Source: an uncultured Gemmataceae bacterium (GTDB lineage: Bacteria; Planctomycetota; Planctomycetia; Gemmatales; Gemmataceae). From it: a DNA stretch of 64,000 nucleotides. Both the position numbers and the translations under genes were made by a program. How positions within the stretch are numbered: position 1 is the first letter of the stretch; every line of letters begins with the position of its first letter. Below the pieces are notes generated by a model. It was not told where the DNA came from. It ran no database searches and worked only from the letters and a program-made list of their open reading frames with translations. The stretch is taken from contig CAVVPN010000004.1 of assembly GCA_963750165.1 (NCBI GenBank), positions 1,120,001 to 1,184,000 of the forward strand, read 5' to 3'. Positions 30,924-58,844 of the stretch are shown piece after piece.

Positions 30924-30979
30924 TCGGTTTTCTCTCGACTTCGACCCTTTTGCCTCGGCCTGCTCTCGCGCTCACCCTC

Positions 30980-31531
30980 TTACTCGTTCTTTCCGAAAAT
31001 CGTGACACCGATGTTGTGCAAGCCAGCGTATTTGATTGCCAGGCCGAGGAGGATATACTCGTCCTTTTGGTAACCAGCAGCAAAAGCATCCTGATGCAGC
31101 AACATCGTCGGTTGGTTCTCTTGGCCGGACTGTGTTGCTTCTATCGCTGCTTTTTTTACACCCTTCGCAAATTCAGGAAGGTAGTGTTCAACAGTTGCAA
31201 CCACCGTATCCACTCGCCTCTTTTTTTCGGCAGCGGTAGGTGATTCCTGCTCGACACCTGGCACCAGCTTCATTACTCCGTCTTCTTGGAAGTTGAACTC
31301 GCCACGCCGGACTCGATCCAAGGCCCGGTTGATCTCGTCTTCGCGGCCCCGGTAGGACTGCAGAAACGTACTCACAGGAAAAGACGGGTCAACATCATAA
31401 AAGCCGACGACCGGGCCTGGCGGTGCTTTATCAAGGAGAAGCAACAGTTCGGCCTGACAATACTTTTCGTCAGCACAACGAGTGTACAAGGCTGCACTTT
31501 TTCCTTCGCCTTGCCGCATGATAAATGCCAT
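30980..31531 (-). CDS. Cassette hypothetical protein
   Basis: ORF fills the inter-attC space; GGAGA RBS. Confidence 0.7.
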   Translation of the reverse strand: MAFIMRQGEGKSAALYTRCADEKYCQAELLLLLDKAPPGPVVGFYDVDPSFPVSTFLQSYRGREDEINRALDRVRRGEFNFQEDGVMKLVPGVEQESPTAAEKKRRVDTVVATVEHYLPEFAKGVKKAAIEATQSGQENQPTMLLHQDAFAAGYQKDEYILLGLAIKYAGLHNIGVTIFGKNE

Positions 31532-31621
31532 TGTGTGGTCTCCTTTCCCGGACCAAGCTCAGCCTGGAGGATGCCTTTAGTATTCCACGCTCCGCGACCG
31601 ACGGCTACCGCTCTACGCGTG

Positions 31622-31722
31622 CCCGAACGACCAAGCTCAGCAGCAGCCTCACGCGGACCAAACCGCCACAACTCGCTCGACCGCCTATCGCGTGGGCTGT
31701 CTGCTGCAGCGACTGGTTCGGC
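31622..31722 (-). repeat. attC site
   Basis: CCCGAAC..GCTCAGCAGC...GTCTGCTGCAGC..GTTCGGC. Confidence 0.85.
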
Positions 31723-31734
31723 CTGTTGCCTATT

Positions 31735-32261
31735 CTACTTGCAGGCCGACACGTCTTGGTTGACGACCTCGCGAACCCGCGCCGCCTCCTCTTCATGCTT
31801 TACAACGACCCTCAATATCTCTAATGGCGCCCAATCCTGTGCCAAGGCCGGGCGAAGCGCAACCGCGAAGTCCTCCATCGACAGCGGGCCGAAGCCGGTC
31901 GCGAGTGCCGCGAGGTTGACCGTCCGGCGCGCAGCTCCCGCGCCTTGGACAAAGCCGTGAGGATCGTGTCTCTGACAAGCTCTATCGAGGAGTCGTAAGA
32001 CGGGTCGATCAAGACCGCGTGCAAGATCCTCTTGACCGGCAACGATCCCGGGCCGGTGCAAACCACCGTCCCGGGATCGACCGTTCTGCGGCCCCCGTCG
32101 CGCAGGTAGCGCTGAAGCTCCTCGTAAACGTCCTCGCCCTTAGGGCGTACGATGATCCCCAGGTTGACGCCGCCGGTCATCTGTAACCACGGGTTGGCGG
32201 TCGCCACCAACACGTCGGCAGGGACGTCGAGGATATTCCCAGCAAGGATCTCAAGCCTCAT
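31735..32261 (-). CDS. Macro-domain protein (frameshift near 31930)
   Basis: GNILDVPADVLV.TANPWLQMTGGV, GSLPVKRILHAV, then LAALATGFG in a shifted frame. Confidence 0.75.
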
Positions 32262-32292
32262 CTCCAGCCCCCAGAATGCGCTGCCTCTTGTG

Positions 32293-32382
32293 GCCGAACG
32301 ACCCAACTCTGCGGCGGGCCACTCGACGCAATGTTTCCAGATTGACCTCAGATGGCCCGTCCGCAGCAGCGTCTGGTTCGGC
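32293..32382 (-). repeat. attC site (family A)
   Basis: GCCGAAC..CTCTGCGGCGGGCC...GGCCCGTCCGCAGCAGC..GTTCGGC. Confidence 0.9.
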
Positions 32383-32793
32383 CAGTTACTTCATGCCGAC
32401 GCCGTTTCTTCTGGCTAATCTCACGTCGTAATTAGCGGCCGACTTTCACATTATTGAGGATCAGAGGCACCTCGTTATCCATTCCGATGAAACCACGAAG
32501 AAGTTCAATCCTTGCGACTTCTTTGACTCTGTCCGCCACACGTCCCATGTTCAGCTTAATCTGAATCTTGACGCCTTCAGGAAGCTTAACGGGTTGGGGC
32601 ATGAGTGGCATCGTGGGTTTGCCGAGCGCATAGGTTTTGCCGTCTTCGAGGATTGCCCTGCACCGGCCGAAAAAAACTAGGACGGCAATCCTGACTGGAG
32701 CCGTGGAGTTCCCCAGGGAATAATGGCGGTGCTCATTAGTCCATCTGTCTGAATACACAGGGAATTCTGTCCACTCCAGTCAGGATTGCTGTC

Positions 32794-33138
32794 CTAGAAA
32801 AAAACCATCTTGTCGCCATCTTCACTGAGTGCGGTCAGGGTCAACTCCCAATTCGGCCCATTCATCTGCGTCTTGGTCACCTCATACGTCACGCCGTCAA
32901 GAGTGCCCTTCACGGTCGTAGTACCCTTCGCAGACTTCTCCTTTTTGCCTCCACCCTTCTTGAGAAGTTCATTCTCCCGCTTGAGGAGATCGTTCTCCCG
33001 CTTCAAGAGTTCGATCTCCCGCTTGAGGAGTTCGATCTCTTTCTTGTACTGCCCTTCTTGACCCGATTGAGCATCCGCAACTCGTGGGAGTGCCAAGGAC
33101 ACGCAAGCAACACAGATGAGAGCAAAGCAACGGGCCAT
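32794..33138 (-). CDS. Secreted coiled-coil hypothetical protein (may continue to 32432)
   Basis: Signal peptide; EIELLKRE heptad repeats. Confidence 0.6.
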   Translation of the reverse strand: MARCFALICVACVSLALPRVADAQSGQEGQYKKEIELLKREIELLKRENDLLKRENELLKKGGGKKEKSAKGTTTVKGTLDGVTYEVTKTQMNGPNWELTLTALSEDGDKMVFF

Positions 33139-33232
33139 CTGAACCTCCCCCATTAGGAAATTCCGATCGAGCTTCGCCGAAAGGCCAGGGGCTCGCACCC
33201 TGTCCCGCCCACCCTCGACTCCGAAGGCGGCC

Positions 33233-33321
33233 GCCGAACAACCTAGCTCTGCGGCGGGCCACTCGACTCAATGTGTCCGAATAGACTCAGATGGCCCGTC
33301 CGCAGCAGCATCTGGTTCGGG
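33233..33321 (-). repeat. attC site (family A)
   Basis: Same arms as 32293. Confidence 0.9.
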
Positions 33322-33372
33322 TCTGATGTTTTCCAGATTCGACTCCCGACCCTCTTAGTTTTTCCGGCAAAG

Positions 33373-34290
33373 TCACCCGAACAATCGCCATTTCGGACGC
33401 CTCGCACTGAAATTCCGAAGCTCCGACGCCAACTCCAGGCCGCTTGAATAACGTCGGGCAGGATCTTTGTTCAGGCATTTCAGACAGATTGCCTCCAGAT
33501 TGCGGTCTATGTGCGAATTGAACCGTCGGGGCGGCTCGGGATCACTGTCGATTGCTTGCTTCAGTGTCTCAAGGACCGTTTCCCCTCGGTACGGCGGACG
33601 GCCGGTCAACAGCTCATAGAGAATCGCTCCCAGGCCGTGGATGTCGGTGGCTGGTCCGATGGCGTCCAGACGCGCTTGGGCTTGTTCAGGAGCCATGTAT
33701 GCCGGAGTTCCACGAATCGTTCCCTCAGACAACTCTGCGATTTCATCATGTCGCAGCGCAAGCTCAAAGCCGGCAACCTTCGGGATGCCGAAGACTTCTT
33801 CATACCCTACTGCGTCCGGGTCGCTCATAGTCTCGGTTGAAGGTGGCACGGCCAACCAGATTCGGCTCGGCTTCAAGTCACAGTGCAGGATGCCGCGCTC
33901 ATGGATGTAGGCAACCGTGCGAGCCAGGCGTTCCACCAAGCCCGCACTTGGTCTACAGAACTGTCCAAGTTTTTGGATTCGTAGACCCAGGCTTCCTCCA
34001 TCCACAGCCTCGAGTACGAGGTATACCCGGCCCTGGTGTTGGACACGATCATGTATCTGGACGACATGCGGATGTCGGAACGAAGCGAGAACCTCGCCTT
34101 CCCGCTCAACGTATCGTTGGCTGTCCACCCCGGCAGTCGTCAGGATTGTGTAGAGGGTTACAATTCGGTCCAAGCTGTGCTGGCGAGCGCGATAGTAGAC
34201 GCCCATGCCATCTCTAAGCTCCGCCAAGACGTCATAGCCAGGGAGCTTTTTCGAGTCGTCATCGTTCCAAGTAGATGTCGCGACGCTCAT
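33373..34290 (-). CDS. Ser/Thr protein kinase-like cassette
   Basis: ILHCDLKPS, GTPAYMAPEQ, DIHGLGAILYELLTG and CLNKDPARRY motifs. Confidence 0.88.
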   Translation of the reverse strand: MSVATSTWNDDDSKKLPGYDVLAELRDGMGVYYRARQHSLDRIVTLYTILTTAGVDSQRYVEREGEVLASFRHPHVVQIHDRVQHQGRVYLVLEAVDGGSLGLRIQKLGQFCRPSAGLVERLARTVAYIHERGILHCDLKPSRIWLAVPPSTETMSDPDAVGYEEVFGIPKVAGFELALRHDEIAELSEGTIRGTPAYMAPEQAQARLDAIGPATDIHGLGAILYELLTGRPPYRGETVLETLKQAIDSDPEPPRRFNSHIDRNLEAICLKCLNKDPARRYSSGLELASELRNFSARRPKWRLFG

Positions 34291-34312
34291 GGTAGCATTT
34301 CGTACTTTGCGT

Positions 34313-34403
34313 GCCGAACGACATAGCTCTGCGGCGGGCCACTTGACTTAATGTTATCCGATTGATCTCAGATGGCCCGTCCGCAGCAGCACCTTGGTTC
34401 GGC
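34313..34403 (-). repeat. attC site (family A)
   Basis: Same arms as 32293. Confidence 0.9.
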
Positions 34404-34503
34404 TCTGATGTTTTCAGGAATCGACTCCCGACCCCTTTGATTTTCCTTTCCGACTTCCGACCCCTTTTCTGTTCTCTCTCCCAGTCTCTGTCCTCTCGTC
34501 TAT

Positions 34504-36017
34504 CTTGGCAGTCGCACTTTTCCGAGTGCTCAAACCGCGAGATTTACGCAGTTTTTCAGCGCTCGATGAGTTTCAGGAGTTCCGTTGCATCGGCCGACTT
34601 GGGTTTAATTAGGGCGTTCAAAGTCGCCCGCCGCAACACGGCAACCATATGACGCAACGACCATTCACTCTCCCAGGGTCCCATCACTTGGCGCAATTCC
34701 TCCGCCTCCGGCAACTGCCGACCGGCGGTAAGATACCACACCATCACGACGCTCTGCAACGACCACACCCACGGCGCCACCTTCTCCACCGCTTCCCGAC
34801 TGTAGTGTTGTGGCGCCTCGAGGTCCAGCACCTGTTTGCTCGCCCGGAACAGTACCTCAATGGACCAGCCCAGGCGAACTGCGTAATCACCCACCCCACG
34901 TCCGCACGCACGTCGGTCGTGAACAGGTAGGCATCGTCCAACTTCCCGTCCGGGTCGCGCACCACCACCACCTGCACCGGCCGCAACCCCAACACCCGCG
35001 GCCACACCGCCCGGTAGGCGAACGCCCGCAGGACGCGCTGCTCCCCGTAGACGGTCACCGTCACCGCCTGCCACACCCAGTCCCCGGTGGCCACGCGCTT
35101 ACGGTCGGCCTTGGCGGCGGCTGCTTTGGGGTTGGGCAGACGCGGCCCCTTCTGCGCCTTGCGGCCGCGCCGGCCGGGCTTGGCCTGAGGCAGACGCGGG
35201 TCGTACACGGCCGCGTCGCCGCGCAACCGGCCGACGAAGGTCACGCGCTCGTCCAGGTCCGCCAGCAGCGCTTGGGCCGCGTAAGCGCCGTCGGCCACCA
35301 GGGTAAAGCGCCGGCCGGGGAACCAGGCCAGCACTTCGGCGAGCACCCACGCAGCAGTGGGCAGGACGGCTGCGCCTGGCCGGGCCGGTGCAACCGGGCC
35401 AGCAAGGGCAACGCCAGGATCGGGGCGTTCGCGAAGGGCAGGCAGACGGCGACGGCGACGACCACCCAGTTGTGCCCCGCGGCCGTGGCGGTGCGTTTGC
35501 GGGTCGAGGCGACGGCATCGCGGAACCAGCCGAGGCCCCAGACGTGCTTGCCGCGCTTGTGGGCCAGGGTGTCGTCCACCAACAGCGTGATGGTGCCGCC
35601 CAGGTGGAGGCGCGTCAGGATGAGGACGGCGACGTGGTAGGCCAACCCGGTCACGGTCCAGGCGGAGCGCGCAAAGAAGTTGTAGGTGGTGTCCAGGCCG
35701 TGGCGCCGGGAATGGTCCCGCAAGTCTTGGGGTTGGGCGGTGTCGGCGACGCGACAGAGGCGGTGCTGGCCCAGGCACATCACCCAGCCGAGCACGAGTT
35801 GGCAGTGGGTGTGGAACGAGGGCAGGGTGAAGGCCGGGGCGAGGGCTTGGACGATGGGCTGGAGAGAAGCTATCATCAGCCACATGAGGGGCTCCTTCCG
35901 GCGAGTGCATGGCTTGAGAACCTATGCACAAACTTAGGAGGAACCCCTCTCTCTTTCTGCGACAGCCCCGTGACACTATCGGTGTTCGTCTGTTCATGGA
36001 AGCGTGCGACAGTTCAG
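34504..36017 (-). mobile_element. IS701-like IS, copy 1 (transposase 34556..35885, frameshifted)
   Basis: LLVDDTLAHKRG, GHNWVV and ADGAY motifs; imperfect TIRs CTTGGCAGTCGCAC / CTGAACTGTCGCAC; CTAT duplication at 34500-34503 and 36018-36021. Confidence 0.85.
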
Positions 36018-36020
36018 CTA

Positions 36021-37848
36021 TCATGGACCCTTATTATTGCCTTGTGGGGTTGCGGTCCCCTTTCCCTTACGAGCAGGGTAGAGCATGATCCCCCACGTGT
36101 CATCAATCGTGTAAACTGCGCCGACGTGATCGACAATCGAATCCAAAAACCTCTGGTAAGTCATCCCCTTTCTCGCGACGACGCTGATCCTCAATTCCTT
36201 AATATTCTTGCCGTCTTTGTCGAAAATCTCTTCTTCAAAACAGAAAAACACCTCAATCTGGTTGTGAATCCACAGCAGGATTTCCTCAAAACTCTCACGT
36301 TCAAACTTCTTTTCGGCCTGAATCCTGTTAGGAAGTTTTGACTTTGCAACCGCCCCAAGACCCTTTGGAAGGTTTTCTTCGGATTGCAATTTCTTGTCAT
36401 CAGCAGGGCTAAGGCAGCCGTTCAAAATTAGTCCGCAGCTTACACCTGGGTGCTGATGTTAGAATATTGTCCAACGTGGCTTGATGGTGTAATTCCAACT
36501 GGGGCAGACGGCATGCCTTTGGAGGCGCCACGTCTGCATTTCTGCGTCCGGCACCTTGACCCCCTTCGCGTACTCCGCGTCCAGCAACGTCGCACGTACC
36601 GCCCAACCGGCGTCCGTCTCCGTGCCCCGGATGCAGGCCAACAGCGTCTCCACGGTTCGCAGCGGCTCCCCCGCCCAGTTGACGCTGATGCGGCTGAACA
36701 GCCGGTGCTCCACCGGGTTCCACTTCGACGCCCCCCGCGGGTAATGGCACACCGTCACCCACAGCCCCCAGCGGTCGGCCAACTCCTCCTGGAGGCGCTG
36801 TTTCCACAACCGCACGCGGCAACTGTTGCTCCCGCCCGCGTCGCACAGGATCAGCAACTCGTCGGCCTGCGGGTACCACAGCCGTCCCTCGCCGCGCCAC
36901 CACCGGCCGATCACGTCCCCCGCGAACGCCGCGGTGTCGGCGGACAACCCCACGTAGACATGGCCGCGGTCCTGGCGCACGTCGTAGACCCCGTAGGGGA
37001 CGGCCCGGCCCAAGGCGTCGTCCAGGAAGTCGTGGGCGTTGACCTCCGTCCGCGCCGGCACCACTGCCGCCCTGCATTCTTGAAGTTGCCGATCAACTCC
37101 TTTTTCTTGCTGTCCACGCTGATCACCGGCTGGCCGAGGATGGCGAAGCGGCGCCGCTGCCCGGCGATGTACGCGAACTGCCGGTCCCGGTCTGGGTGAG
37201 GCGGGCCGGTGAAGCGCTTGCGGTTGGCCTTGAGCGAATAGCCCAGGTCGTCCAACAGGCGATAGACCGTGGCGGGGCTGACGGCGAAGCCTTGGCCTTG
37301 CAACCGCGTGCTCAGGTAGGCGACGCTGTGGCGCACCCACTTCTGACAGGTTTGCGGGCTGCCGGCGGTCTGCTCCTGGACCAAGCTGCCTCAAAGCGTT
37401 CATGAGGCCCGGCACTTTTTTTTCACAGCGGGCCGTCCTGCCCCGGGCCGGCGGATGCGATCCGGGGGGCAGTCCCGCAGGGAGTCCTCGAGTTCCCGGC
37501 GACCGCGCCGGATGGTTTCCACGTTCAGGCCGGTGATGAGGGACAGTAGGCGGTCGCCGCCGCGGCCGACCTTCTGGGACTCCCAGGCTGCCAACCACCG
37601 GCGTTGGTGCTCATCCAACCGGCTCAGGAGAAGGTTGAGCCGGTAATGGAGGGCGCGTTCGGGGTGGTCCGCACCTTGTCGGCAGTGAGGGCATTGGCAT
37701 TGGTGGATGTCCACGGCTCTGCCTCCCTTCCAAACCAGGCCCCCGGTTGGGCCAGGGTTATTGTAGAAGGGAACTGCGGATTAATTTTGAAACGTTGCCT
37801 AATGGCAAGCGCCATCAAGACGACGATGGTTGGCATCTGGTTTCTCAC
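36021..37848 (-). pseudogene. Secreted cassette gene split by an ISAzo13-like element
   Basis: Removing the IS and one TAA rejoins MRNQMPTIVVLMALAI to SPADDKKLQ... in frame. Confidence 0.8.
36413..37799 (-). mobile_element. ISAzo13-family IS
   Basis: LDEHQRRW, GAGRP, ISVDSKKKELIGNF and GASKWNPVEHRLFS motifs; TIRs GGCAGCCGTTCAAAATTAGTCCGCAG / GGCAACGTTTCAAAATTAATCCGCAG; TAA duplication. Confidence 0.92.
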
Positions 37849-37918
37849 TTCTTAGGAATGGGAATAAAAATCATCGGGTTCCCATTATCGAACGGGAATT
37901 GTTCGGAGTAAAGAGATA

Positions 37919-37985
37919 AGAAAAGGGGTCGGGAGTCGATATTACGAATCTGAAAAACGTGTTATCGACTCCCGACCCCTTTTCT
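37919..37985. repeat. 67-bp REP/MITE-like hairpin
   Basis: AGAAAAGGGGTCGGGAGTCGAT...ATCGACTCCCGACCCCTTTTCT; identical copy at 48956. Confidence 0.88.
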
Positions 37986-38147
37986 GTCCCAGCTTTCGCC
38001 ACCCCGAAGCCCTCCGGTGGCGGAACAAAGGACGAAGCGCACCGAGTGTAACCACCACGCCATTGGATTTCAAGCGGTGCTCAGGGTTCAGAAAAACCCA
38101 TCGACGGAGTCTCTTGAACGGGCGCCGCTCGGGCGCCCTCCGGCGCG

Positions 38148-38236
38148 TCCGAACGATAAGCTCAGCAGCGGCCCCCAGAGCTGTTCTGATTCTACGAGGG
38201 CGTGCTGGGGCCGTCTGCTGGAGCACCTGGTTCGGC
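38148..38236 (-). repeat. attC site
   Basis: TCCGAAC..GCTCAGCAGCGGCCCC...GGGGCCGTCTGCTGGAGC..GTTCGGC. Confidence 0.85.
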
Positions 38237-38243
38237 CCTTGAA

Positions 38244-38972
38244 CTACTTGCTCCCGAACTTTCGACAGAACTCCAAAGCATCTCGGGCCATCTTGGCGAA
38301 GTGCTTGTCGGGGCTCTCGGCAATCTGCTTCAACACAGCCTCGGCCTTCGCACGGTTGAAACCAGGCTCTGCCAACCGCGCAATGGCCAGCGGGCGATAG
38401 TCGGCTGACTCCGTCAGGGGGATGAACTCGCCGGACGCCACCTTACTCAACAGATCGAAGTCGGTCGTCTTCGACACCAGAAGATAACTGAGATCATCGT
38501 GACTGACCATCCCTTTGCCCGCGTTGGACAGGGGTAGGCTTTCGCCATCAATTCGATAGCGCACCTTCGCCTTGAATCCGGCCGCAGCCACATAGCCATG
38601 TACGATCAGGTAGGTTTCGTCAGGCACCTTCACAAGTCTCAGGTCGTTGCCACATAAGGGGCAGTCGAGCACCCGCGCGGCTTTCCACTTGCCAGGTTCG
38701 GCCTCATATTCCACGGCGATGAGCGGTTGCCCCTGATTGGTGACAAACTCTACGGGCTTGCCGGTCCGATTGATAAGGTAGAGTGGAACGCCGATACGGT
38801 CCTTGTTCTTGAAATCGGCGAACAACGAAAGTTGGCCGCGCGGCGCCGGGACGTGAGCGGGTAACTTCGTCGTCCGGATGCCAGGGCCCACTTTGGCCTT
38901 AGGCGGATCGGTGGCACTCACCAATCCGAAGGAGAACGACAAAGCCACAACGAAACTCACAGGGCCTCTCAT
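38244..38972 (-). CDS. Secreted hypothetical cassette protein
   Basis: Signal peptide; LINRTG and CPLCGN. Confidence 0.7.
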   Translation of the reverse strand: MRGPVSFVVALSFSFGLVSATDPPKAKVGPGIRTTKLPAHVPAPRGQLSLFADFKNKDRIGVPLYLINRTGKPVEFVTNQGQPLIAVEYEAEPGKWKAARVLDCPLCGNDLRLVKVPDETYLIVHGYVAAAGFKAKVRYRIDGESLPLSNAGKGMVSHDDLSYLLVSKTTDFDLLSKVASGEFIPLTESADYRPLAIARLAEPGFNRAKAEAVLKQIAESPDKHFAKMARDALEFCRKFGSK

Positions 38973-38990
38973 CTGCACTCCTCTTCTGTG

Positions 38991-39079
38991 GCCGAACGAC
39001 ATAGCTCTGCGGCGGGCCACTCGACTCAATGTGTCCGAGTAGACTTAGATGGCCCGTCCGCAGCAGCACCTGGTTCGGC
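38991..39079 (-). repeat. attC site (family A)
   Basis: Same arms as 32293. Confidence 0.9.
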
Positions 39080-39117
39080 TCTGTACTTTTCTCTTCCAAC
39101 TCGGACCCTGCAATACC

Positions 39118-39633
39118 TCAGTTGCCTGAGCGACCTGCTGCGCCAGGTTCAGGGCATCTCTGCCCTTCGGGGGAGAACTCCGCAAACCAGGGTGTTGCAT
39201 CCGCGAATCCGCTGCTCGCACTGACAACCCGCTCTCCCGTCGCGGGGTGGGCGAACTCGCCACTCCCGGGGATCGGAACAACCTCAGTCGAACCGCACTC
39301 AAGGCAATGTGGCGGGCTGACGCGGTGGCGTCGCCAGCGCAAACGCCTCTGGAGTTCTGCCAATGACTCCTCCGCTTTCTTTCGTTGTCCGGCCTTCCTC
39401 GGCTGCCGCTCGTTCAGCCAAGACTCCAACTGGCCAATCTCGACCTCAAGCGCTTCGCAAGGCCGGAGCAGTTCCGCTGTCACGAAGGAACCGCAGGCCC
39501 GACACCAAGCCGGCTGTTGCTCGACGTGCAACTTCGAGCCGTCTTCCAAGCGGTAGTCAAGGAATGCGGAGTACAACACCCAGGCGTTGCCCCCAGAATC
39601 GGGCAAGTCGTATTCGACGTACCCACGCCCCAT
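39118..39633 (-). CDS. Cassette protein with CxxC pairs
   Basis: WCRAC and CLECGS motifs. Confidence 0.7.
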   Translation of the reverse strand: MGRGYVEYDLPDSGGNAWVLYSAFLDYRLEDGSKLHVEQQPAWCRACGSFVTAELLRPCEALEVEIGQLESWLNERQPRKAGQRKKAEESLAELQRRLRWRRHRVSPPHCLECGSTEVVPIPGSGEFAHPATGERVVSASSGFADATPWFAEFSPEGQRCPEPGAAGRSGN

Positions 39634-39648
39634 GCCAAACTCCGTGAA

Positions 39649-50094: not shown

Positions 50095-50110
50095 CGACCC
50101 TCCTCGGGTG

Positions 50111-50298: not shown

Positions 50299-50661
50299 TC
50301 AAGCTAGCCCATCTGTAGTAGAGCTTGGCTCGGCACCTGCCTTTCTCCCCTTTCGGATGCACCACTTCAATTTGGCAACTACCTGCGGGGAGAGTTCCGC
50401 CTCGGGCACGACCTCGCCCGTTCCGGTGAGCATCTCCACCTCGCCAAGGCGGTTCAAGCGCAGGGCATAATCCCCATTGCACCGGGCGAGCTGATGCCGA
50501 GTGGACCGCCAGGCCACGAGGAACGGCCCTTTCCGGAAAAATGCCAGGGCGAGGCACGAACAACTCGGGGCGTAGAGACATTCCCTGCGGAAGAACCCCC
50601 GGCCGAGCAACTGGTAAAGCCGGATGCACATGACGGCGGCCCAGCATGCGACTCTATCCAT
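50299..50661 (-). CDS. YidD-like (membrane protein insertion efficiency factor) protein
   Basis: IRLYQ...ECLYAPSCS...LARCNG. Confidence 0.6.
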   Translation of the reverse strand: MDRVACWAAVMCIRLYQLLGRGFFRRECLYAPSCSCLALAFFRKGPFLVAWRSTRHQLARCNGDYALRLNRLGEVEMLTGTGEVVPEAELSPQVVAKLKWCIRKGRKAGAEPSSTTDGLA

Positions 50662-50947
50662 GGCCTCTGACCCACTGCACGGCGGTCCCCCAGGCGAACA
50701 CCTCGAACACCTGCTTCGCGGTGCCGCAGCCCTGTGCGCTAGCCACGCGACTCTGAAAGCTCACGAACAAGAGCCCGTCGGCGTCGAGAGCGCTGGCGCC
50801 TTCCTCCAGCCGTTCGAGCGCTTTGCGGTAGACGGACTCCACCTTGATCGTCCCCTGGCAGCCCTCCGTTTTGCTCGCGAACCCCACGACGAGATCGAGA
50901 ACCTTGAACGGGCGACCTGCATCGCCTGAGCTTACGAGCAACGAGCA
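50654..50947 (-). CDS. Small YbjQ-like protein, overlapping the YidD-like gene
   Basis: GGAGG RBS plus GTG; LLVSSGD..RPFKVLDLV, ADGL, AWGTAV. Confidence 0.5.
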   Translation of the reverse strand, partial: CSLLVSSGDAGRPFKVLDLVVGFASKTEGCQGTIKVESVYRKALERLEEGASALDADGLLFVSFQSRVASAQGCGTAKQVFEVFAWGTAVQWVRGHG

Positions 50948-50960
50948 CCTCCCTCGCGAG

Positions 50961-51050
50961 TCCGAACAACAAAGCTCTGCGGCGGGCCGCTCGACCTGGG
51001 CGTATTCTACTAACCTCAGATGGCCCGTCCGCAGCAGCGCCTGGTTCGGG
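50961..51050 (-). repeat. attC site (family A)
   Basis: CTCTGCGGCGGGCC...GGCCCGTCCGCAGCAGC. Confidence 0.9.
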
Positions 51051-51146
51051 TCGGTTTCTTCTCGACTTCGACCCTGATTTCTCAGCCCGGTTGCGACCAC
51101 GGCGGTGGTGCTGAAGACTTGGCCTCGGCCCGCCCAACTCGGCCTC

Positions 51147-51647
51147 CTACCCGCGAAACAACCGCGCCACCATCTCTCGCAACCCCGCAGACTGAACTCC
51201 GCTCAGGTCAGACCACACAGCCGGGGGCTCGGGCAACCGCAACAACTCTCGGCCCGTGTCCGCAAACGCCCACTCGCAGGACCAACTCGCCGCCCCGATG
51301 ACCCATGCCACTCTGGACCGGGGTCTGAGCCACGGCTCGAACGCCTCCGGGCCGAACGGGAAGTGGGACGCAATGGTTTGGATGCCCTCGACAATTCCGA
51401 TTGTGGTGACTTCCCGTGCCTGCTCGTCCCCTTCTGCCAGGCACTTCTCGAGCGCCGCGAAGGCGGCAGGGAACTCGGCGTGGTCCCCCGCCGCGTACCG
51501 CTCCACCAGGAAATCCGCGATGACCGCCGTGTCGTTGTAGACGCCGCGGTCGGTGTGGCCCTCCCAGGAGGTCAAGTACTCCGCCCAGGGGGCGGACAGC
51601 CCGGGGCAAGCAGCGAGGAATGCAGGGACGATGTCATCGGCGGTCAT
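51147..51647 (-). CDS. Cassette hypothetical protein
   Basis: F.ALE.CL.EGD..ARE..TIGIVEGIQ. Confidence 0.7.
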   Translation of the reverse strand: MTADDIVPAFLAACPGLSAPWAEYLTSWEGHTDRGVYNDTAVIADFLVERYAAGDHAEFPAAFAALEKCLAEGDEQAREVTTIGIVEGIQTIASHFPFGPEAFEPWLRPRSRVAWVIGAASWSCEWAFADTGRELLRLPEPPAVWSDLSGVQSAGLREMVARLFRG

Positions 51648-51749
51648 GCGTCAGCGCCCGGCGGCCGAACAACGGATAAGGCGCGGCTTTCTCATACACC
51701 CACTGCCGGAGTCACTTGGACGTGGGCGGTTGGGGCGCCCTCCGGCGCG

Positions 51750-51839
51750 TCCGAACGACCCAGTTCACGTGCGGGCCACTCGACTCAATGTTTTCCGATT
51801 GACCTCAGATGGCCCGTCACGTGCAACACCTGGTTCGGC
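51750..51839 (-). repeat. attC site (family A)
   Basis: TTCACGTGCGGGCC...GGCCCGTCACGTGCAA. Confidence 0.9.
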
Positions 51840-51906
51840 TGGTCTCACCCGCCTGATGTCGAATCGAGTTGCTTCCTCTTTTCTTTCCCTTTTCTTTCCC
51901 GGATCG

Positions 51907-52245
51907 CTATTTGTGCCCCTTGGAATGAGCCTGCATAGCCGCCTCGCGCGAGAACCCTTCGGCCCGAGACCCTCGCAGCGTCACGACGATGTGGCCCTTC
52001 ATGAAGCTCATGTGCGGCAAGCAGAAGTACTCGAAGCCAATCGCGTCGCTGGCCTGGCTGAACTCCACGGGGTCCGACGTTTCATTCTGACCGAGTAACT
52101 GGGTCATGAACGCCGGCGCGTCGTTGCGCTGGGCGTTGTGCATTGCCGGGTCGAGGTTCTGCCACTGGATCGAGTCACCGACCGCTATCACGACCGTCTC
52201 GGGCACGAACGCGAAACCCTGCATCTTCACGACGACGGTGGCCAT
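51907..52245 (-). CDS. Cupredoxin (amicyanin/plastocyanin-like)
   Basis: FVPETV.I.VGD...W.N.D...HN ... YFCLPH..M copper ligands. Confidence 0.88.
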   Translation of the reverse strand: MATVVVKMQGFAFVPETVVIAVGDSIQWQNLDPAMHNAQRNDAPAFMTQLLGQNETSDPVEFSQASDAIGFEYFCLPHMSFMKGHIVVTLRGSRAEGFSREAAMQAHSKGHK

Positions 52246-52291
52246 GCCACTCCCTCCATAATCAGGAAACATCAACCTTTGGCTTCATTTC

Positions 52292-52388
52292 GCCGAACGA
52301 ACCAGTTAAGCTGCCGGGCCGGCTGCCACGACTTCAATCCGCGAGAGACCGTGGTGCCGGCCCGGTCAGCTTCAACGCTGGATTCGGC
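52292..52388 (-). repeat. attC site with mutated R'' core
   Basis: GCCGAAC..AAGCTGCCGGGCCGGC...GCCGGCCCGGTCAGCTT..ATTCGGC (A replaces G). Confidence 0.78.
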
Positions 52389-52409
52389 TGGCCTATCTTA
52401 ATCCCCATT

Positions 52410-53372
52410 TCAAGGCTGGTAGGAAAATTGTGGAAGGATGCCCGCCTTGATCAATGCGACCCCGGCTGTGCGTAACTGGAACATCGTCGAAAAAATGACG
52501 GATTTGATATCAAATCCGCTCGTCCAGCAGTCTTGCAACTGTTTGAGCACGGCTGTCAACGCCTGGATGAACGCGGTCTGGTCAGCTCCCGGCACAGCTT
52601 GGAAGGGAAACACCGTTGGCATCTGGATGGGGTGCGCGTCAGAATACTGGAACCCACCTCCTTGAACCGGAACCAGTTGTTTACCGAAGTAGATTGTGCT
52701 GAAGGCATAGTAGTGAGCCAACTCAGCCAGATCGACCGTCCCTTCTTCAGGAGTTCCGGAGGCGCCTTCTCCTTGGGCCTTGATGACGTTTTTCATGGCG
52801 TTGACGGCGTCCTGCACGTTAGTGATGGCCGTCAGGGAATCTCTATCCACCGACGCCGTAACCTGATGGGCCGGTGGGCTTGGAAACTGGCCCGTTGGAA
52901 ATAGTGCAACGAATGCGTCGGCAATCTTGTCGTAAAACTCTCCAATGGTCGGCGGTTGAGGGCCTGGGGGTGGCGGCGGCTGCGGAATGATGCTGCCATT
53001 TTCCGGGTATTCAATCTGAAGAAAGGTACCAAGCGAAGGCAATCCCAATGGCAACAGATCAACCACCAGACCAGGATGCACACCACCAGGCAGAGGGCCG
53101 GGATAGGTCGGAATAAAGTGAGGATTGGCAAAGTTTGGAACGCCGCCGATCGCCGTAAGCAAGTTACAGGCAAACCCAAAGTGCAGCATTTCCTGAATCA
53201 CGACACCGTGGACGATAGATCCAGCGCCACTTGGATCACTGTTGATCGACCATTCGGCGCACAAGTAAGGCGGAATGGTGGAGAACTCGAGCTGAATGGC
53301 CGTGTGCAATGCGTCCTGTAACTCCGCGACCGTGTTGATGCCGGTCGCCAGGGTGTCCCGCACGGTTCGCAT
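52410..53372 (-). CDS. Ferritin-like domain protein (VioB C-terminal type)
   Basis: AIQLEFSTIPPYL, EMLH...NLL.AIGG, F..IE.P, TIGEFY, QGEG and HYY.F motifs. Confidence 0.85.
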   Translation of the reverse strand: MRTVRDTLATGINTVAELQDALHTAIQLEFSTIPPYLCAEWSINSDPSGAGSIVHGVVIQEMLHFGFACNLLTAIGGVPNFANPHFIPTYPGPLPGGVHPGLVVDLLPLGLPSLGTFLQIEYPENGSIIPQPPPPPGPQPPTIGEFYDKIADAFVALFPTGQFPSPPAHQVTASVDRDSLTAITNVQDAVNAMKNVIKAQGEGASGTPEEGTVDLAELAHYYAFSTIYFGKQLVPVQGGGFQYSDAHPIQMPTVFPFQAVPGADQTAFIQALTAVLKQLQDCWTSGFDIKSVIFSTMFQLRTAGVALIKAGILPQFSYQP

Positions 53373-53392
53373 GAGCGTGCTCCTTGGTTGAA

Positions 53393-53482
53393 GCCGAACT
53401 ACCCAGTTCATGTGCGGGCCGAGTGACCTGGGCGTGTCCATGTAGACTCAGTTGGCCCGTCACGTGCAACACCTGGTTCGGG
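53393..53482 (-). repeat. attC site (family A)
   Basis: TTCATGTGCGGGCC...GGCCCGTCACGTGCAA. Confidence 0.9.
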
Positions 53483-53660
53483 GCTGTTAATCTTGAATGT
53501 CCCCTTTTCTTTTCCGAGAATGGTTTCTCCGTTGGCCTCCACCTCGGATTCCTGGACTTGGTGTGCGTTTGGGACTGCCACTCCTCTGACTCCCCCGCGC
53601 GCGACGGCTGCGCCCCTGCTGCCTGCGACCAAGCCAGTGCCTTCCGCGACCGCATGGGCT

Positions 53661-53981
53661 TCACGCCTGCGGGTCAGCGGTCACTGACGACACCAATTGA
53701 AACTCGCCGTCGGCGTAGGCAACCTTGATGGATCGAAAAACCTTGGGGGACACATCAAAGGTCTTCGTGTACGGATCCGAGTGATTGGGGTCATCGGCGA
53801 AAGCGGAAAAATACACCGCCGAACAATTAGGAACGTTGGGGAGCCCGATTGGGAGGTTCTGCCCGGGACTCACTCGGTTGTCCTTTGCTTGCAGGGTACC
53901 AGGGGGAGCTTCGATCGTGACTAGCACGTCGAAGACAGTTTCGTCGTTCCGGAAATCGACCTCGGTAAAGGGAACGCTCAT
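53661..53981 (-). CDS. Cassette hypothetical protein
   Basis: AAGGAG RBS; 106 aa. Confidence 0.65.
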   Translation of the reverse strand: MSVPFTEVDFRNDETVFDVLVTIEAPPGTLQAKDNRVSPGQNLPIGLPNVPNCSAVYFSAFADDPNHSDPYTKTFDVSPKVFRSIKVAYADGEFQLVSSVTADPQA

Positions 53982-54009
53982 GTGGGACTCCTTGTAAATC
54001 TCGGTATTC

Positions 54010-54109
54010 GCCGAACATGGAGTTCACGTGCTGGAGGCGCGCTTGACCGACTGGCAATTTGCAACGACAGAAGGGCGCGCCTCCAGTCATGTGCAACGCA
54101 GGGTTCGGC
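54010..54109 (-). repeat. attC site (duplicate of 55721)
   Basis: TTCACGTGCTGGAGGCGCGC...GCGCGCCTCCAGTCATGTGCAA. Confidence 0.87.
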
Positions 54110-54555
54110 TTGGCGGCCGCAGCAACGTGAGACTCCATGTTCCAAGTGGCTAGCCGGTTGCCCTTTGACGAACCGGAGGTGGGCTGGCGGCAACCACGAT
54201 CCAGTGCCCACCCGCTAGCGTCGGGGGCGCGCGGCCTGCGCGTAACGCCAGGCCCGAGACTGACAACCATCGGCCGGGGCGCGCCGGTCAGGCCGGGACA
54301 GCTGGGACGAGGCGGGCGACGGCTGGGTGCCGCTGGCGCCTGCTATCCTGGATTCGGACGACAACGCGCGGGGCGACGGCCTGGGGTGCAGCCTCGGTCG
54401 CTGCGGACGCAAGGCACCCCGACGCTCTCGGACTGGACGCCACAGCCGGTGGACCTCGGTCGCCGCCGCTGCACCGCCGCGCGTCTATAGCCTCGCGGCC
54501 GCAATCGTCGTAAACCTATGGTACTACACAACTTATGACGCCAGCCAAGCCGAAC
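54110..54555. other. Apparently ORF-less cassette, copy 1
   Basis: No protein-like ORF; duplicated at 55821-56266. Confidence 0.65.
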
Positions 54556-54645
54556 GACAAAGCTCAGCAGCCGGGGCCGCTGAGGAAATATTGTACCGCG
54601 CGAAACCGTAATGCGGCCCCGGTCTGCTGAAGCGACTGGTTCGGC
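54549..54645 (-). repeat. attC site
   Basis: CAGCAGCCGGGGCCGC...GCGGCCCCGGTCTGCTG. Confidence 0.87.
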
Positions 54646-54703
54646 GGCTACTCGCAGACAACACAAACCGACAGCAACGCCGCGCCATGTTCCTCGTCCA
54701 CCC

Positions 54704-55027
54704 TCACGCCTCAGCGATGAACTCGATGCATACGGAACCGGCGTAGTGGCTGCGTTTCTCGATCAAAACTTCGCCGGTTTGGTCGCTGAACAGTTGCTCG
54801 GACGCTTGATTCGCCATTGTGCCGGTCACTCCCATGTATACCGTTGCATGTTCGATTATCCGCTTACCTTCGGGCGATGTCGGCTTCGGGATCCGTGGGG
54901 TGCCTCGTATTTGAAGGCAATACGTTCCATAGTACGGATAACCGTTCTTGCTACGCTGGACGATCGCGCTGACAAGGTTGTCCGCCGCTCGCTTCAGATT
55001 TTGCATGGAGAACCTACCAACGCCCAA
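54704..55027 (-). CDS. Cassette hypothetical protein
   Basis: Only ORF filling the cassette. Confidence 0.5.
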   Translation of the reverse strand: MGVGRFSMQNLKRAADNLVSAIVQRSKNGYPYYGTYCLQIRGTPRIPKPTSPEGKRIIEHATVYMGVTGTMANQASEQLFSDQTGEVLIEKRSHYAGSVCIEFIAEA

Positions 55028-55037
55028 TCACCAAGCC

Positions 55038-55150
55038 GCCGAACGACTTTGCTCAGTGGCCCCGCCGGAAACATCCGACGCGAATCGAGCAAGCCACTGA
55101 GCGCCGTAATCGATCAAGCTGGCGGGGTCCACTGCAGCATCTGGTTCGGC
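55038..55150 (-). repeat. attC site
   Basis: GCTCAGTGGCCCCGCC...GGCGGGGTCCACTGCAGC. Confidence 0.82.
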
Positions 55151-55286
55151 TCGCCTTGCCGAAGAACCAGCCACCTCACGCGCCAGTGCCAAGCATGACC
55201 GCGACGGCACGTCTCTGACAGTGCGGCAGTGTCAACGCATTGTCACTGAGCCGACTCTTCCGCTGCGAACGCCCGGAACCTTCCAA

Positions 55287-55379
55287 GCCGAACGACAAGC
55301 TCGCCTGCCGGCGGGCGGGAGAGCCGCGGACATTGTAGGGCCGTCAAGCCCGCCGGTCAGGTGTAGCAACTGGTTCGGC
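55287..55379 (-). repeat. attC site
   Basis: GCTCGCCTGCCGGCGGGC...GCCCGCCGGTCAGGTGTAGC. Confidence 0.82.
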
Positions 55380-55423
55380 CGCCTCTGCCGTCGGCTCGCT
55401 CTCGCGGCCATCTCCCAGCCGGG

Positions 55424-55705
55424 TCACGACCGGCGGAACGACTGGAGGAGAATGCGCAGCAGCCGGTCGTGTTGGGCGTCTTTGCCCTTCTTTGTCGTGC
55501 CGATCTTACCCGACACCTTGCGCCCGGTCGGCCGGTGGGTCACCGACATCCAGACGATCCGCTGGTGTGCAATGAACGCCAGGCCGAACCCGGATTGCAC
55601 CTCGAATTCGTGAGCGTTCAGCCCGAACTCGGCGAACACGTCCGGCCCGGCCGGCGGCACCCCGGTCGGTGACCTTGCTCGCCTCCTTGGCTGCCGATCC
55701 CCCAT
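55424..55705 (-). CDS. Small cassette hypothetical protein
   Basis: GGAGG RBS; 93 aa. Confidence 0.55.
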   Translation of the reverse strand: MGDRQPRRRARSPTGVPPAGPDVFAEFGLNAHEFEVQSGFGLAFIAHQRIVWMSVTHRPTGRKVSGKIGTTKKGKDAQHDRLLRILLQSFRRS

Positions 55706-55720
55706 CGGAAGCCTCCCCTA

Positions 55721-55820
55721 GCCGAACATGGAGTTCACGTGCTGGAGGCGCGCTTGACCGACTGGCAATTTGCAACGACAGAAGGGCGCGCCTCCAGTCA
55801 TGTGCAACGCAGGGTTCGGC
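55721..55820 (-). repeat. attC site (duplicate of 54010)
   Basis: Identical to 54010-54109. Confidence 0.87.
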
Positions 55821-56266
55821 TTGGCGGCCGCAGCAACGTGAGACTCCATGTTCCAAGTGGCTAGCCGGTTGCCCTTTGACGAACCGGAGGTGGGCTGGCG
55901 GCAACCACGATCCAGTGCCCACCCGCTAGCGTCGGGGGCGCGCGGCCTGCGCGTAACGCCAGGCCCGAGACTGACAACCATCGGCCGGGGCGCGCCGGTC
56001 AGGCCGGGACAGCTGGGACGAGGCGGGCGACGGCTGGGTGCCGCTGGCGCCTGCTATCCTGGATTCGGACGACAACGCGCGGGGCGACGGCCTGGGGTGC
56101 AGCCTCGGTCGCTGCGGACGCAAGGCACCCCGACGCTCTCGGACTGGACGCCACAGCCGGTGGACCTCGGTCGCCGCCGCTGCACCGCCGCGCGTCTATA
56201 GCCTCGCGGCCGCAATCGTCGTAAACCTATGGTACTACACAACTTATGACGCCAGCCAAGCCGAAC
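55821..56266. other. Apparently ORF-less cassette, copy 2
   Basis: Direct repeat of 54110-54555, offset 1711 bp. Confidence 0.65.
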
Positions 56267-56349
56267 TACCAAGTTCACGTGCGGGCCACTTGACGTAAAC
56301 GATTCGCTGCAACCGTAGTTGGCCCGTCATGTGCAACGACTGGTTCGAG
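56260..56349 (-). repeat. attC site (family A)
   Basis: TTCACGTGCGGGCC...GGCCCGTCATGTGCAA. Confidence 0.9.
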
Positions 56350-56451
56350 AAAGTTCTCTCTCGACTTCGACCCTTCTGTCTGCCGCGCTGGAAGCGCTCC
56401 AGCCGGACAACTCGAAGTCCTCAAACCCAGCCGCAGGTTGCTCGGCCCACT

Positions 56452-57051
56452 TCATTGATTACTTCGCAGAGCCAACTCTGCCGCCGCCATTTCCGCGGCT
56501 TGACGCCAATTCCCGACAGTTGCATCAACAATGGCCTCTGGGTGCCGTCCCGTATACTCAATGAACCACGAAAGCATACCATCCCACTCCGAGATGTTGC
56601 CGGGACTGACGAGTTGCCAGCCAAGTTCCTCAATGGTCCAGTTCGATTTCGCGCTGTTACGTGCCCAAGATGTCGTCACCCAGTTCGTCTGGTCATCGGC
56701 GCCTCCTCGCGTAACCGGGACCACGTGATCCAGCGTAGTGCTCAATTCCCAGTATGCGGGATGCGTCTGATCCGTCTTCCAATTGGGATGGTACGGAAAT
56801 GCCTCCGGGAGTGCGAATGACAGCACTCGAAAGACCGGCGTGTAGACCAGCCGCGCTCCGGAGTAGCGGTCGATAAACCCATCACGTATGAATACCCGGG
56901 TGTAGTCGATCATGCTGAAGCGGCGTGGCGTGGCCTTCACTGGGGCAAACGGGTAATCCCGTCGGATGATGGCTTCGGCAGCGGCTCTACCTTCGTCCAT
57001 CAGAGCCCGGCAAACAGCGGTGAGCGCCGAACTCTTGTCGTGAAGTTTCAT
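56452..57051 (-). CDS. HNH endonuclease
   Basis: VFIRDGF, TLDHVVPVTRGG....TNWVT.....NSAK. Confidence 0.85.
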   Translation of the reverse strand: MKLHDKSSALTAVCRALMDEGRAAAEAIIRRDYPFAPVKATPRRFSMIDYTRVFIRDGFIDRYSGARLVYTPVFRVLSFALPEAFPYHPNWKTDQTHPAYWELSTTLDHVVPVTRGGADDQTNWVTTSWARNSAKSNWTIEELGWQLVSPGNISEWDGMLSWFIEYTGRHPEAIVDATVGNWRQAAEMAAAELALRSNQ

Positions 57052-57067
57052 AGTCGCCCTCCGCGCG

Positions 57068-57166
57068 CTCGAACGCAACAGCTCTGCGGCTTTCGGGGGC
57101 CGAGCTGCCGCTGAAGTTTGACTGACGGAATGGCCCCCGAAAGTCCGCAGCAGCGTTTTGTTCGGT
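57068..57166 (-). repeat. attC site
   Basis: CTCTGCGGCTTTCGGGGGCC...GGCCCCCGAAAGTCCGCAGCAGC. Confidence 0.87.
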
Positions 57167-57193
57167 GTTCTTCTGCTTGGCGACCTACCGGAC

Positions 57194-57763
57194 CTACTTT
57201 GGCGGGCCTTTTCGTTGTGGACCGGAACGAGTTTCAATGATCTCGCGAAGCAGCTCGGCTTGGGCGGCGCGCTCGCGGGTTCTGGTTCCCGGGACTTCGT
57301 CGCTGCTGCGGGCGACCGCCTCAGCCGCGAACCGGGAGGCGATATCTGCATGGGTCCGGTCGGAGAGGCACCGAACCGCAAAGGCTGCCGCCTGGGCTGC
57401 ATTGTATGCGGGGTCGTGGGCGGCCATCATCTCGAAGGGATCAGGCCCTGACCGCATTATTCGTATTTGCCGCGCGAACTCCTGCTCCCCGAGAATGGGA
57501 ACGCAAACGGCTACCACAGCCTGCGCTACCGCAGCATCCGCCTCGCGGATGGCGTGTTCAATCTCCTCGCGCCTGGCTCCCCCCTGGACAGCACCACGCA
57601 ACAGCTCCACGGCACGCATGCTTCTCGGGTCCTGCATCAGCCGCCGGATGCGGTCGCAACAAGCACATGCAAAGAGGCAGAGGTCGGAGGAGCCGGCATT
57701 CTCAGGCAGGGAGCGCAGCATCGGGGTCGGATCAATTGCAACCCTCCACTCCACCTCAGTCAT
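57194..57763 (-). CDS. 'MTE.EW...LFACAC' family protein, short form
   Basis: MTEVEW, DP..ML, LFACACC, ERAAQAELLREI. Confidence 0.75.
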   Translation of the reverse strand: MTEVEWRVAIDPTPMLRSLPENAGSSDLCLFACACCDRIRRLMQDPRSMRAVELLRGAVQGGARREEIEHAIREADAAVAQAVVAVCVPILGEQEFARQIRIMRSGPDPFEMMAAHDPAYNAAQAAAFAVRCLSDRTHADIASRFAAEAVARSSDEVPGTRTRERAAQAELLREIIETRSGPQRKGPPK

Positions 57764-57778
57764 GGATCACCTCGGCAC

Positions 57779-57868
57779 ACCGAACTACCCAGTTCACGTG
57801 CGGGCCACTCGACGTAAACGATTCGCTGCAACCGTAGTCGGCCCGTCACGTGCAACACCTGGTTCGGA
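57779..57868 (-). repeat. attC site (family A)
   Basis: Near-identical to 56260. Confidence 0.9.
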
Positions 57869-57874
57869 CTGAGT

Positions 57875-58627
57875 TTACTCTTTTCCGAGCAACAAATCCA
57901 CTATCCAGCAGCCGCGGACGTGAGGCCCTGAGCCGCGACAGTGGGCAAGCATTTCGGCATTTGCACACCCCGCCTCCTCCAGCGCGTCAGCCAAGATCGG
58001 GAGTAGGCCGAACCCCCGCTCCTCGTAGATTCTCTCGGCCATCGCGACCACCGTGGGCGTACGCCAACCCGGATCGAAGTTCGGCGGGCGGAACGGGTTG
58101 CCGAAGATGTCGTGCAACATTAGTAACTGCTGGCCTATCTCGTCGTCCGAACCGGGAACGCCCGCCGCGACAGCGACCATCTCCGCGGCCCAACCCCCGA
58201 CCAGGTATCTGACTCTGGCCCCCAGTTGTTCGGGCTGGGCGAGCTTCGCTGCCAGTTCCAGACCGGCGTTCGTCAGCGGGTCGGGCGGTGGGCGAGGCAG
58301 GAAGTCGGGAGGTGGGCCATATTGGTCCATCTCCGCTGAAAGCTCGTAGAGTGTCGGCAGGGGGGTGACCGCAAGCGGGCCACCTGCCGCGTCGGCCGCG
58401 GCCTCGGCGAGATCAACCGTGCGGCGGCACAGGTTGCTGGGCAGCAGGTGGGCGACGCGGCGGGCGCACGCGACCTCGAACAGATAGACCTTGCGGTCCG
58501 TGAGCCAGGCGCAGCCATCGAGCACAAGACCTTGCAGACCACTGCCAAGGGCGTACGAATCCTTGCAGGTGAGCCACACCTCCTCGGTGAACCACTCAGC
58601 GTAACGGCGCGGCCTTTTCCTCGCCAT
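57875..58627 (-). CDS. 'HCR..GPHVRGCW' family protein
   Basis: DIFGNPFRP, LPILADALEEAGC, HCRGSGPHVRGCWIVDLLLGKE. Confidence 0.85.
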   Translation of the reverse strand: MARKRPRRYAEWFTEEVWLTCKDSYALGSGLQGLVLDGCAWLTDRKVYLFEVACARRVAHLLPSNLCRRTVDLAEAAADAAGGPLAVTPLPTLYELSAEMDQYGPPPDFLPRPPPDPLTNAGLELAAKLAQPEQLGARVRYLVGGWAAEMVAVAAGVPGSDDEIGQQLLMLHDIFGNPFRPPNFDPGWRTPTVVAMAERIYEERGFGLLPILADALEEAGCANAEMLAHCRGSGPHVRGCWIVDLLLGKE

Positions 58628-58646
58628 CCGATACGCCCTCCGCGTG

Positions 58647-58735
58647 TCCGAACACCCCAGCTCACGTGCGGGCCACTCGACTCAAGTTCTTACTACAGCC
58701 TCAGTTGGCCCGTCATGTGCAGCGGCTGGTTCGAG
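58647..58735 (-). repeat. attC site (family A)
   Basis: CTCACGTGCGGGCC...GGCCCGTCATGTGCAG. Confidence 0.9.
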
Positions 58736-58844
58736 CTGGTCCTCTCTTACTTTCGACCCTTCTTCCCTCACACCGCTGGAGCCTGCAAGGGCACTCCCGC
58801 GCCTCCGCCAAGGTGACTCACCCGCCGCGGGTCGCTCCCCTTAT

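Follow-up and report, generated by a model that had tools for sequence, protein, structure and literature searches.

How genes acquire attC sites is, to our knowledge, still an open question, and the integron described here bears on it. The window analyzed is a stretch of 64,000 nucleotides from an uncultured Gemmataceae bacterium (C4:1120001-1184000 of genome G000), the genome of which has a size of 9.6 Mb and is 93% complete. A cassette array runs through the window (Table 1), and the integrase gene intI lies ~15 kb past its end (IntI, C4:1198898-1199845; 426 bits vs a curated cut-off of 265); array and IntI make up a complete integron. One group of attC sites, family A, is homogeneous (89-91 nt) and supplies 44 of the 100 attC-like sites scored genome-wide, the other 56 being non-A. 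The family-A site at 30835-30923 adopts an attC-type fold on the bottom strand, with R''/R' and L''/L' pairing and extrahelical bases (z -3.7). A preliminary description of the window had noticed a REP-like half-motif beside family-A sites and had read it as a possible scar of attC delivery or cassette construction by a REP/HUH-type process, or as a sign of cassette capture next to genomic REPs. The motif is a terminal inverted repeat (TIR) belonging to TIRYT elements, little-studied transposons that use single-stranded DNA and have a transposase of the Y1-HUH type. Single TIR arms precede attC sites in one orientation, and we suggest that TIRYT ends may well act there as rearrangement joints.

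The identity of the motif is evident from the transposase genes that it flanks. The 18-mer of the preliminary description is called T1 here, and the other TIR types are numbered T2-T7. In another genome (L036), T1 forms an inverted pair on both sides of a 223-residue PF01797 gene, so that a transposase gene flanked by the motif, as had been envisaged, does exist, although not in this genome. Among 80 loci with relatives of the intact Y1 gene of this genome, 26 have T1, 14 of them on both flanks, and the sister types T2, T3, T4, and T7 occupy the remaining related loci. The TIR type tracks the transposase clade, with 5 changes vs a shuffled mean of 26.6 in a quick tree of 73 proteins. For the TIRtrons and their TIRYT transposases, the covered part of the original description gives the TIR consensus GGGGWSAS (Di Nocera 2013, PMC3733652), which T1 and T5 fit at 7 of 8 positions and T6 at 8 of 8. 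Because T1 flanks Y1 genes, the TIR type follows the clade, and the arrangement matches that of TIRtron/TIRYT, the motif is an end of a transposon of the HUH superfamily and not a GTAG-type REP. The proposed link to HUH enzymes thus holds for the superfamily, and the assignment to REPs does not.

The proteins of L001, which has T2 ends, and of L036 carry the HuH motif HWH and the class 2 Y motif YVERN, the final residue of which deviates from the Y---NP signature. About 95 residues follow the core, but only Y1_Tnp was matched in Pfam; the C-terminal extension of TnpA-Y1 subclass 2.1 resembles a helix-turn-helix. As far as the covered part of Quentin 2018 (PMC6006769) goes, TIRYT was mostly placed in this subclass, and the TIRYT described here probably belongs to it. 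In the predicted fold, a single arm is mostly unpaired and pairs only with a second arm, and no tetranucleotide foot of the GTAG/CGTC type was found in the motif copies. As a free repeat, T1 occurs as 10 dimers with both arms listed and as 9 single arms. The four PF01797 matches in this genome correspond to one intact T2-ended TIRYT, two broken T6-ended copies, and one REP-flanked gene. T5 is a putative TIR type, assigned by its dimers and likeness only. The T4 arms fused to attC (C12:1093103, C12:1304462, and L043) retain a T-run and a -35-like box; since both also follow the left TIRs of TIRYT genes, these arms look like true left ends. At several TIR outer feet (window 34450-34467, C12:315553, L070, L076, L088, and L091), short tandem duplications comprise the flank and the first TIR letters, and they may mark the cleavage position.

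The association with attC was evaluated genome-wide with a TIR library taken from transposase flanks only, counting an arm when it lay at <=2 edits and <=75 nt upstream of the site; 10 of 110 candidate sites had been removed by eye as false positives before counting. Arms were found upstream of 13/44 family-A and 4/56 other attCs, compared with 3/1500 post-stop windows, 3/566 A-rich windows, and 2/440 shuffles. The motif is accordingly enriched well beyond chance beside attC, and a reversed arm was present upstream of 0/100 sites. As the motif copies share ancestry, p-values overstate independence, and the effective sample is a handful of independent fusions, below the raw count. T1, T3, T4, T5, and T6 were each found before attCs. 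The 35 places within 3 mismatches of T1 comprise 21 dimer arms, 9 singles upstream of attC, and 5 weak (3-mismatch) matches; each of the 9 T1 arms that have <=2 mismatches and are not part of a dimer lies upstream of an attC. TIR dimers are dispersed over the genome (63 arms in dimers). Two further arrangements were considered and rejected: an attC carried between two TIRs is unsupported (a right-hand arm downstream in 1/88 at <=2 edits), and whole TIRtrons beside attCs were absent among the 80 loci by the attC pattern used.

The copies in the window fall into two classes. Those that had been listed beside attC sites are present; only the one at ~39098, which requires 5 edits, a value that is equalled beside several non-A sites, is indistinguishable from chance by edit distance. 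The listed copies terminate 9-17 nt from R'', and on the cassette strand the motif lies between stop codon and attC, oriented toward attC. As had been stated, all but one adjoin family-A sites, 40334 being the sole exception. They are not one motif, however. The copies at 33339, 34421, and 40334 are true TIR arms (class II). Arms of this class are near-perfect, belong to at least five types (T1, T3, T4, T5, and T6), and stand 24-68 nt upstream of R''. The others, the majority of the list, are decayed copies (class I) within a 5' tail of ~55 nt common to family-A sites, which starts at, or <=2 nt from, the stop codon in three cassettes. Several arms had escaped the preliminary description: the exact one at 45856, the partial repeat at 34450, and other TIR types at ~45780-45824, 51866, 53492, and 62678. 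The hairpins at 37919 and 48956 are real (~-29 kcal/mol, z ~-10) and consist of T1 dimers. Aligned with T1, the class I consensus agrees at 14 of 17 positions, a score equalled by 259 of 5000 shuffles (p ~0.05), so that descent of the tail from T1 is plausible but borderline, and not established. Class I copies form an older inherited family-A tail, possibly a decayed product of the TIR-joining process. The distance from stop codon to attC has a median of 95 nt in family A vs 34.5 nt in the others (p 0.03, from crude gene calls).

Table 1. Positions of the array, TIR arms, TIR dimers, class I motifs, and related features (window coordinates unless a contig is given; mismatches are to the 18-mer for T1 arms and to the 15-mer variant for class I).
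Feature	Position	Strand	Mismatches	Context
Integron cassette array	29324..62633	-		41 attC-like sites in window, 17 family A
T1 arm	33339..33356	-	2	17 nt upstream of family-A attC 33233-33321
Exact T1 arm 34421-34438 and partial repeat 34450-34467	34421..34467	-	0 (34421)	upstream of family-A attC 34313-34403
T1 arm	40334..40351	-	1	16 nt upstream of non-family-A attC 40217-40317
Three stacked arms, two T3 and exact T1 45856-45873	45780..45873	-		upstream of non-A attC 45636-45729
T3 arm, 3 edits	51866..51881	-		upstream of family-A attC 51750-51839
T5 arm	53492..53509	-		starts 25-27 nt upstream of family-A attC 53393-53482
T3 arm	62678..62693	-		upstream of family-A attC 62545-62633
T1 dimer, head-to-head hairpin	37919..37985	.		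one of four with the same arms and loop in the integron
T1 dimer joined to loop of half attC	48956..49022	.		R'' at 49083; other attC half absent
Class I decayed tail motif	30935..30949	-	0	11 nt upstream of family-A attC 30835-30923
Class I tail motif	41941..41955	-	3 (weaker copy)	before family-A attC 41840-41929
Class I tail motif	44029..44043	-	4 (weaker copy)	before family-A attC 43929-44017; tail begins directly after stop codon
Class I tail motif	49533..49547	-	2	before family-A attC 49432-49521
Class I tail motif	50210..50224	-	2	before family-A attC 50111-50199
Class I tail motif	51062..51076	-	1	before family-A attC 50961-51050
Class I tail motif	56361..56375	-	0	before family-A attC 56260-56349
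Class I tail motif	58747..58761	-	4	before family-A attC 58647-58735
T5 unit abutting apparent cut end of opposite-strand gene	C12:1093816			gene reading by eye
T5 arm and decayed family-A attC	C3:1722029 (unit also given as C3:1722054)			20 nt after conserved host gene
IS110-family element interrupting family-A attC	59902-61215			others at C4:1187910 and C3:2408181

The junctions indicate where DNA was joined. The same TIR-spacer-attC unit is found behind unrelated DNA, with pairs for T1, T3, T4, and T5, and the homology of the shared units stops within ~12 nt of the outer foot of the arm. TIR outer ends truncate attCs and also intI, and a single T1 dimer connects a half attC with a truncated intI. 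A scan gave 12 broken attCs, to which one was added manually; of these 13, a TIR foot is the breakpoint in 6, an IS110-family element in 3, and another hairpin repeat in 2, and the remaining 2 are no more than degenerate. The T5-attC unit at C3:1722029 follows a gene found in 63/120 relatives, which we take to be SMP-30/gluconolactonase-like, with no cassette gene in between. At orthologue loci of this host gene, a TIR was present in 0/29 (at one of them, the downstream DNA ends after 10 nt); one of the 29 was flagged by a loose attC pattern, but inspection by eye revealed none there. One cassette gene family comprises 21 paralogues; a family-A attC follows 3 of them, and in the other 18 no motif was seen by eye after the stop codon. 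The T1 arm at 33339 begins 16 nt past the stop codon of a gene that encodes a kinase domain only (33373-34290, Pkinase). This cassette gene ends where host kinases continue for a median of 362 more residues (5/95 end within 30); at ~43% identity, it does not represent a recent capture. Near the C3 unit, a small gene pair at C3:1722280-1722900 (L127 ~2775-3410), presumably toxin-antitoxin-like, is a site-duplicating insertion: a copy of the 3' end of a host kinase gene stands on either side of it.

The arrangement recurs outside this genome. A metagenome scan gave 27 loci (with a few duplicates) in which a TIR arm precedes attCs of non-A families; since the pattern required the first ten letters of the arm, this demonstrates recurrence and not frequency. 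The distance from arm to R'' is fixed by type in these loci, being 24-26 nt for T5 (10 loci) and 33-35 nt for T1 (4 loci). TIR-attC fusions occur in 6/120 relatives; a looser pattern in the same genomes gave mostly non-attC matches, and by eye 2 of the 28 loci from other genomes had a TIR and an attC. The reversed arrangement had 3 matches in 185,579 genomes, none of which is a TIR arm. The fusion is thus real, directional, and, apart from its amplification in this genome, generally rare.

Y1-HUH enzymes act close to the sites that they bind, where they cut single strands and join them again, and an attC site folds when its DNA is single-stranded. A parallel between the two has been drawn as an analogy only in the covered part of PMC8266576. 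On balance, we favor an explanation in which TIRYT ends serve as joints for rearrangement and thereby render TIR-attC modules portable. The enzyme would act in trans on single-stranded DNA, cutting and rejoining near its TIRs and favoring folded attC hairpins. The inner TIR end would become joined at the attC foot, and the outer TIR end would then be the breakpoint at which the TIR-attC module receives new DNA on its upstream side, through either adjacent deletion or one-ended transfer. IntI exchange of everything beyond R' would eliminate any far arm. The main effect would be array remodelling and erosion, and occasionally a non-cassette gene would be left with an attC behind it. The order of these events, the action in trans, and the function of the products are what we infer. 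The scar interpretation of the preliminary description fits the true TIR arms, with their fixed orientation, several types, and shared units behind unrelated DNA; it is unproven for most of the copies for which it was offered, which form an old family-A tail.

Several observations weigh against this proposal. Support for the order of events comes neither from biochemistry nor from an empty site in a close relative, and no reaction of TIRYT enzymes is described in the part of the TIRYT literature examined. With the attC pattern used here, no attC lies within 3 kb of any of the 80 TIRYT loci. A TIRYT gene with T1 ends was not found in this genome at its 93% completeness, its sole intact TIRYT has T2 ends while a T2 arm precedes just one attC, and T5 stands beside none of the 80 transposase loci. 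Behind the C3 host gene, the attC has decayed (z -1.1). Fusions are rare elsewhere: with the strict pattern, there were 4 matches vs 614 attC half-sites in the 120 relatives and 6 vs 47 in this genome, the patterns for fusions and half-sites differing slightly. The fusion was present in 0/400 phylum genomes, a set that gave 0 in both orientations and therefore carries no information on orientation. Two metagenome loci, L196 and L208, share cassette gene, TIR, and spacer but differ in their attC cores; the cores are thus exchangeable behind R'' without new TIR joints, and the fixed TIR distances may in part be due to old fusions in which the core was later exchanged.

Core exchange also enters into an explanation in which TIRYT had no further part after a few old TIR-attC fusions, inherited with the attC repeat unit and spread by ordinary integron processes, among them exchange of attC cores and a hypothetical tail-copying cassette-making pathway. 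L196 and L208 support it, as do the ~55-nt decayed class I tail, the start of which coincides with the stop codon or lies close to it in three cassettes, the borderline likeness of that tail to T1, the fixed distance of each TIR type to R'' across attC families, and the fact that no T1-type transposase was found in this genome. We nevertheless think it improbable, because near-perfect arms of at least five TIR types are involved, homology breaks off at the TIR foot, and two of the four matching dimers in the integron sit at attC breakpoints. Selfish targeting, modelled on IS1111-attC elements and group IIC-attC introns, would have TIRtrons or TIR dimers target attC hairpins, inserting at them or within them, and later lose their inner part and far arm, and genes would never gain an attC thereby. 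The TIR ends that cut attC loops in 6/13 broken sites, the arms of different types stacked before one attC (45780-45873), the full dimers at two cassette starts, and the known elements that insert near the attC 5' end (PMC3001079, covered in part) all agree with it. If loss were random, however, dimers or arms in reverse would be expected upstream of some attCs, and 0/100 sites have them; a shared TIR and spacer behind unrelated DNA moreover require new outer-end joints, and we judge this account unlikely.

Capture of cassettes beside ordinary genomic repeats, or assembly artefacts at strong hairpins, would agree with the scatter of TIR dimers through the genome, and the sequencing runs, which shared <=9% of words (kinase and IS parts only), provide no check on the assembly. 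The confinement of single T1 arms to positions before attCs, the 18 attC-less paralogues without the motif after their stop codons, the host-gene orthologues without a TIR, and the recurrence of the same arrangement in many independent assemblies make this very improbable, and the capture beside REPs that the preliminary description had offered as its alternative is not supported. A stronger form of the joint hypothesis is that TIRYT is an attC-delivery system, in which a TIR-tagged attC would be joined behind arbitrary genes on single-stranded DNA to create new cassettes. We consider it a tentative extension that is rather doubtful. If true, TIRYT delivery would explain the expansion of the genome's own attC family (44/100 sites), and it would be a second concrete and testable route of cassette genesis besides group IIC-attC introns.

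The component parts of this arrangement are known from the sources covered. As in TIRtrons/TIRYT, a Y1-HUH gene lies between TIRs close to GGGGWSAS, and free TIRs occur as singles and dimers; unlike TIRtrons as described there, single arms are here fused to attC in one orientation and mark integron breakpoints. REP/RAYT systems (REPtron and REPIN) share the enzyme superfamily and non-autonomous hairpin dimers moved in trans, but the arm here is not self-palindromic and lacks the GTAG foot, and the related proteins score 75 and 54 bits, under the NCBIfam RAYT cut-off of 80. Group IIC-attC introns and IS1111-attC elements are likewise mobile DNA at the attC 5' end (PMC3001079), but their chemistry differs, and here there is one TIR arm only, of several types, and no whole element. 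According to a proposal cited in PMC3001079, such introns recruit genes and attC sites and join the two; this is the nearest precedent for gene-attC joining in the covered sources. SALIN and attG insertion (bioRxiv 10.1101/2022.09.11.507474, covered in part) also scatter single attC sites in the chromosome; attG insertion brings a cassette gene with its attC, whereas the C3:1722054 unit follows a host gene without one. The main texts of PMC3733652 and PMC6006769 do not contain the word "integron" (0 occurrences); the present TIR types may be among those listed in Figure 9 and in the additional files of these papers. No paper linking TIRYT or REP ends to attC was found in the main-text parts covered of a mainly open-access literature, and PMC8352920 leaves the native mechanism of attC acquisition unspecified in the part covered. 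The finding ties attC acquisition to TIRYT through an enzyme family, DNA ends, type-specific junctions, and a host gene that is a candidate for having acquired an attC. On a weaker reading, too, TIRYT would be a third class of mobile DNA acting at attC, and the junctions locate where its ends break and join DNA.

Other features of the integron were noted. A search of Rfam with window positions 28000-64000 gave no match, and named database matches to repeats of the window were mostly from Planctomycetota. IS110-family elements split three family-A attCs at an identical position, like IS1111-attC elements. Inside the array, C4:1189700-1190790 (L010 ~6700-7790) contains a second attI, a promoter region, and the 5' half of intI, trailed by its own cassettes; the intI copy ends at C4:1190728 at a T1 dimer, so that two integron platforms stand in tandem. 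A cassette of ~540 nt without a clear gene is duplicated (window 54010-54549 and 55721-56260) and has a relative in a small array at C12:347900. Another cassette is present in two copies (window 46500-48578 and 62004-62568), the former interrupted by an insertion sequence-like element. At C11:841000-843400, a stretch that lacks intI, an attI-like site has direct repeats and is accompanied by two cassettes that carry class I tails; a different hairpin repeat takes the place of the second attC. At C4:501810-501891 and C11:2244163, a perfect 82-nt hairpin holds a REP-like repeat inside arms resembling the attC R box, and this repeat also flanks the Y1 gene of L004.

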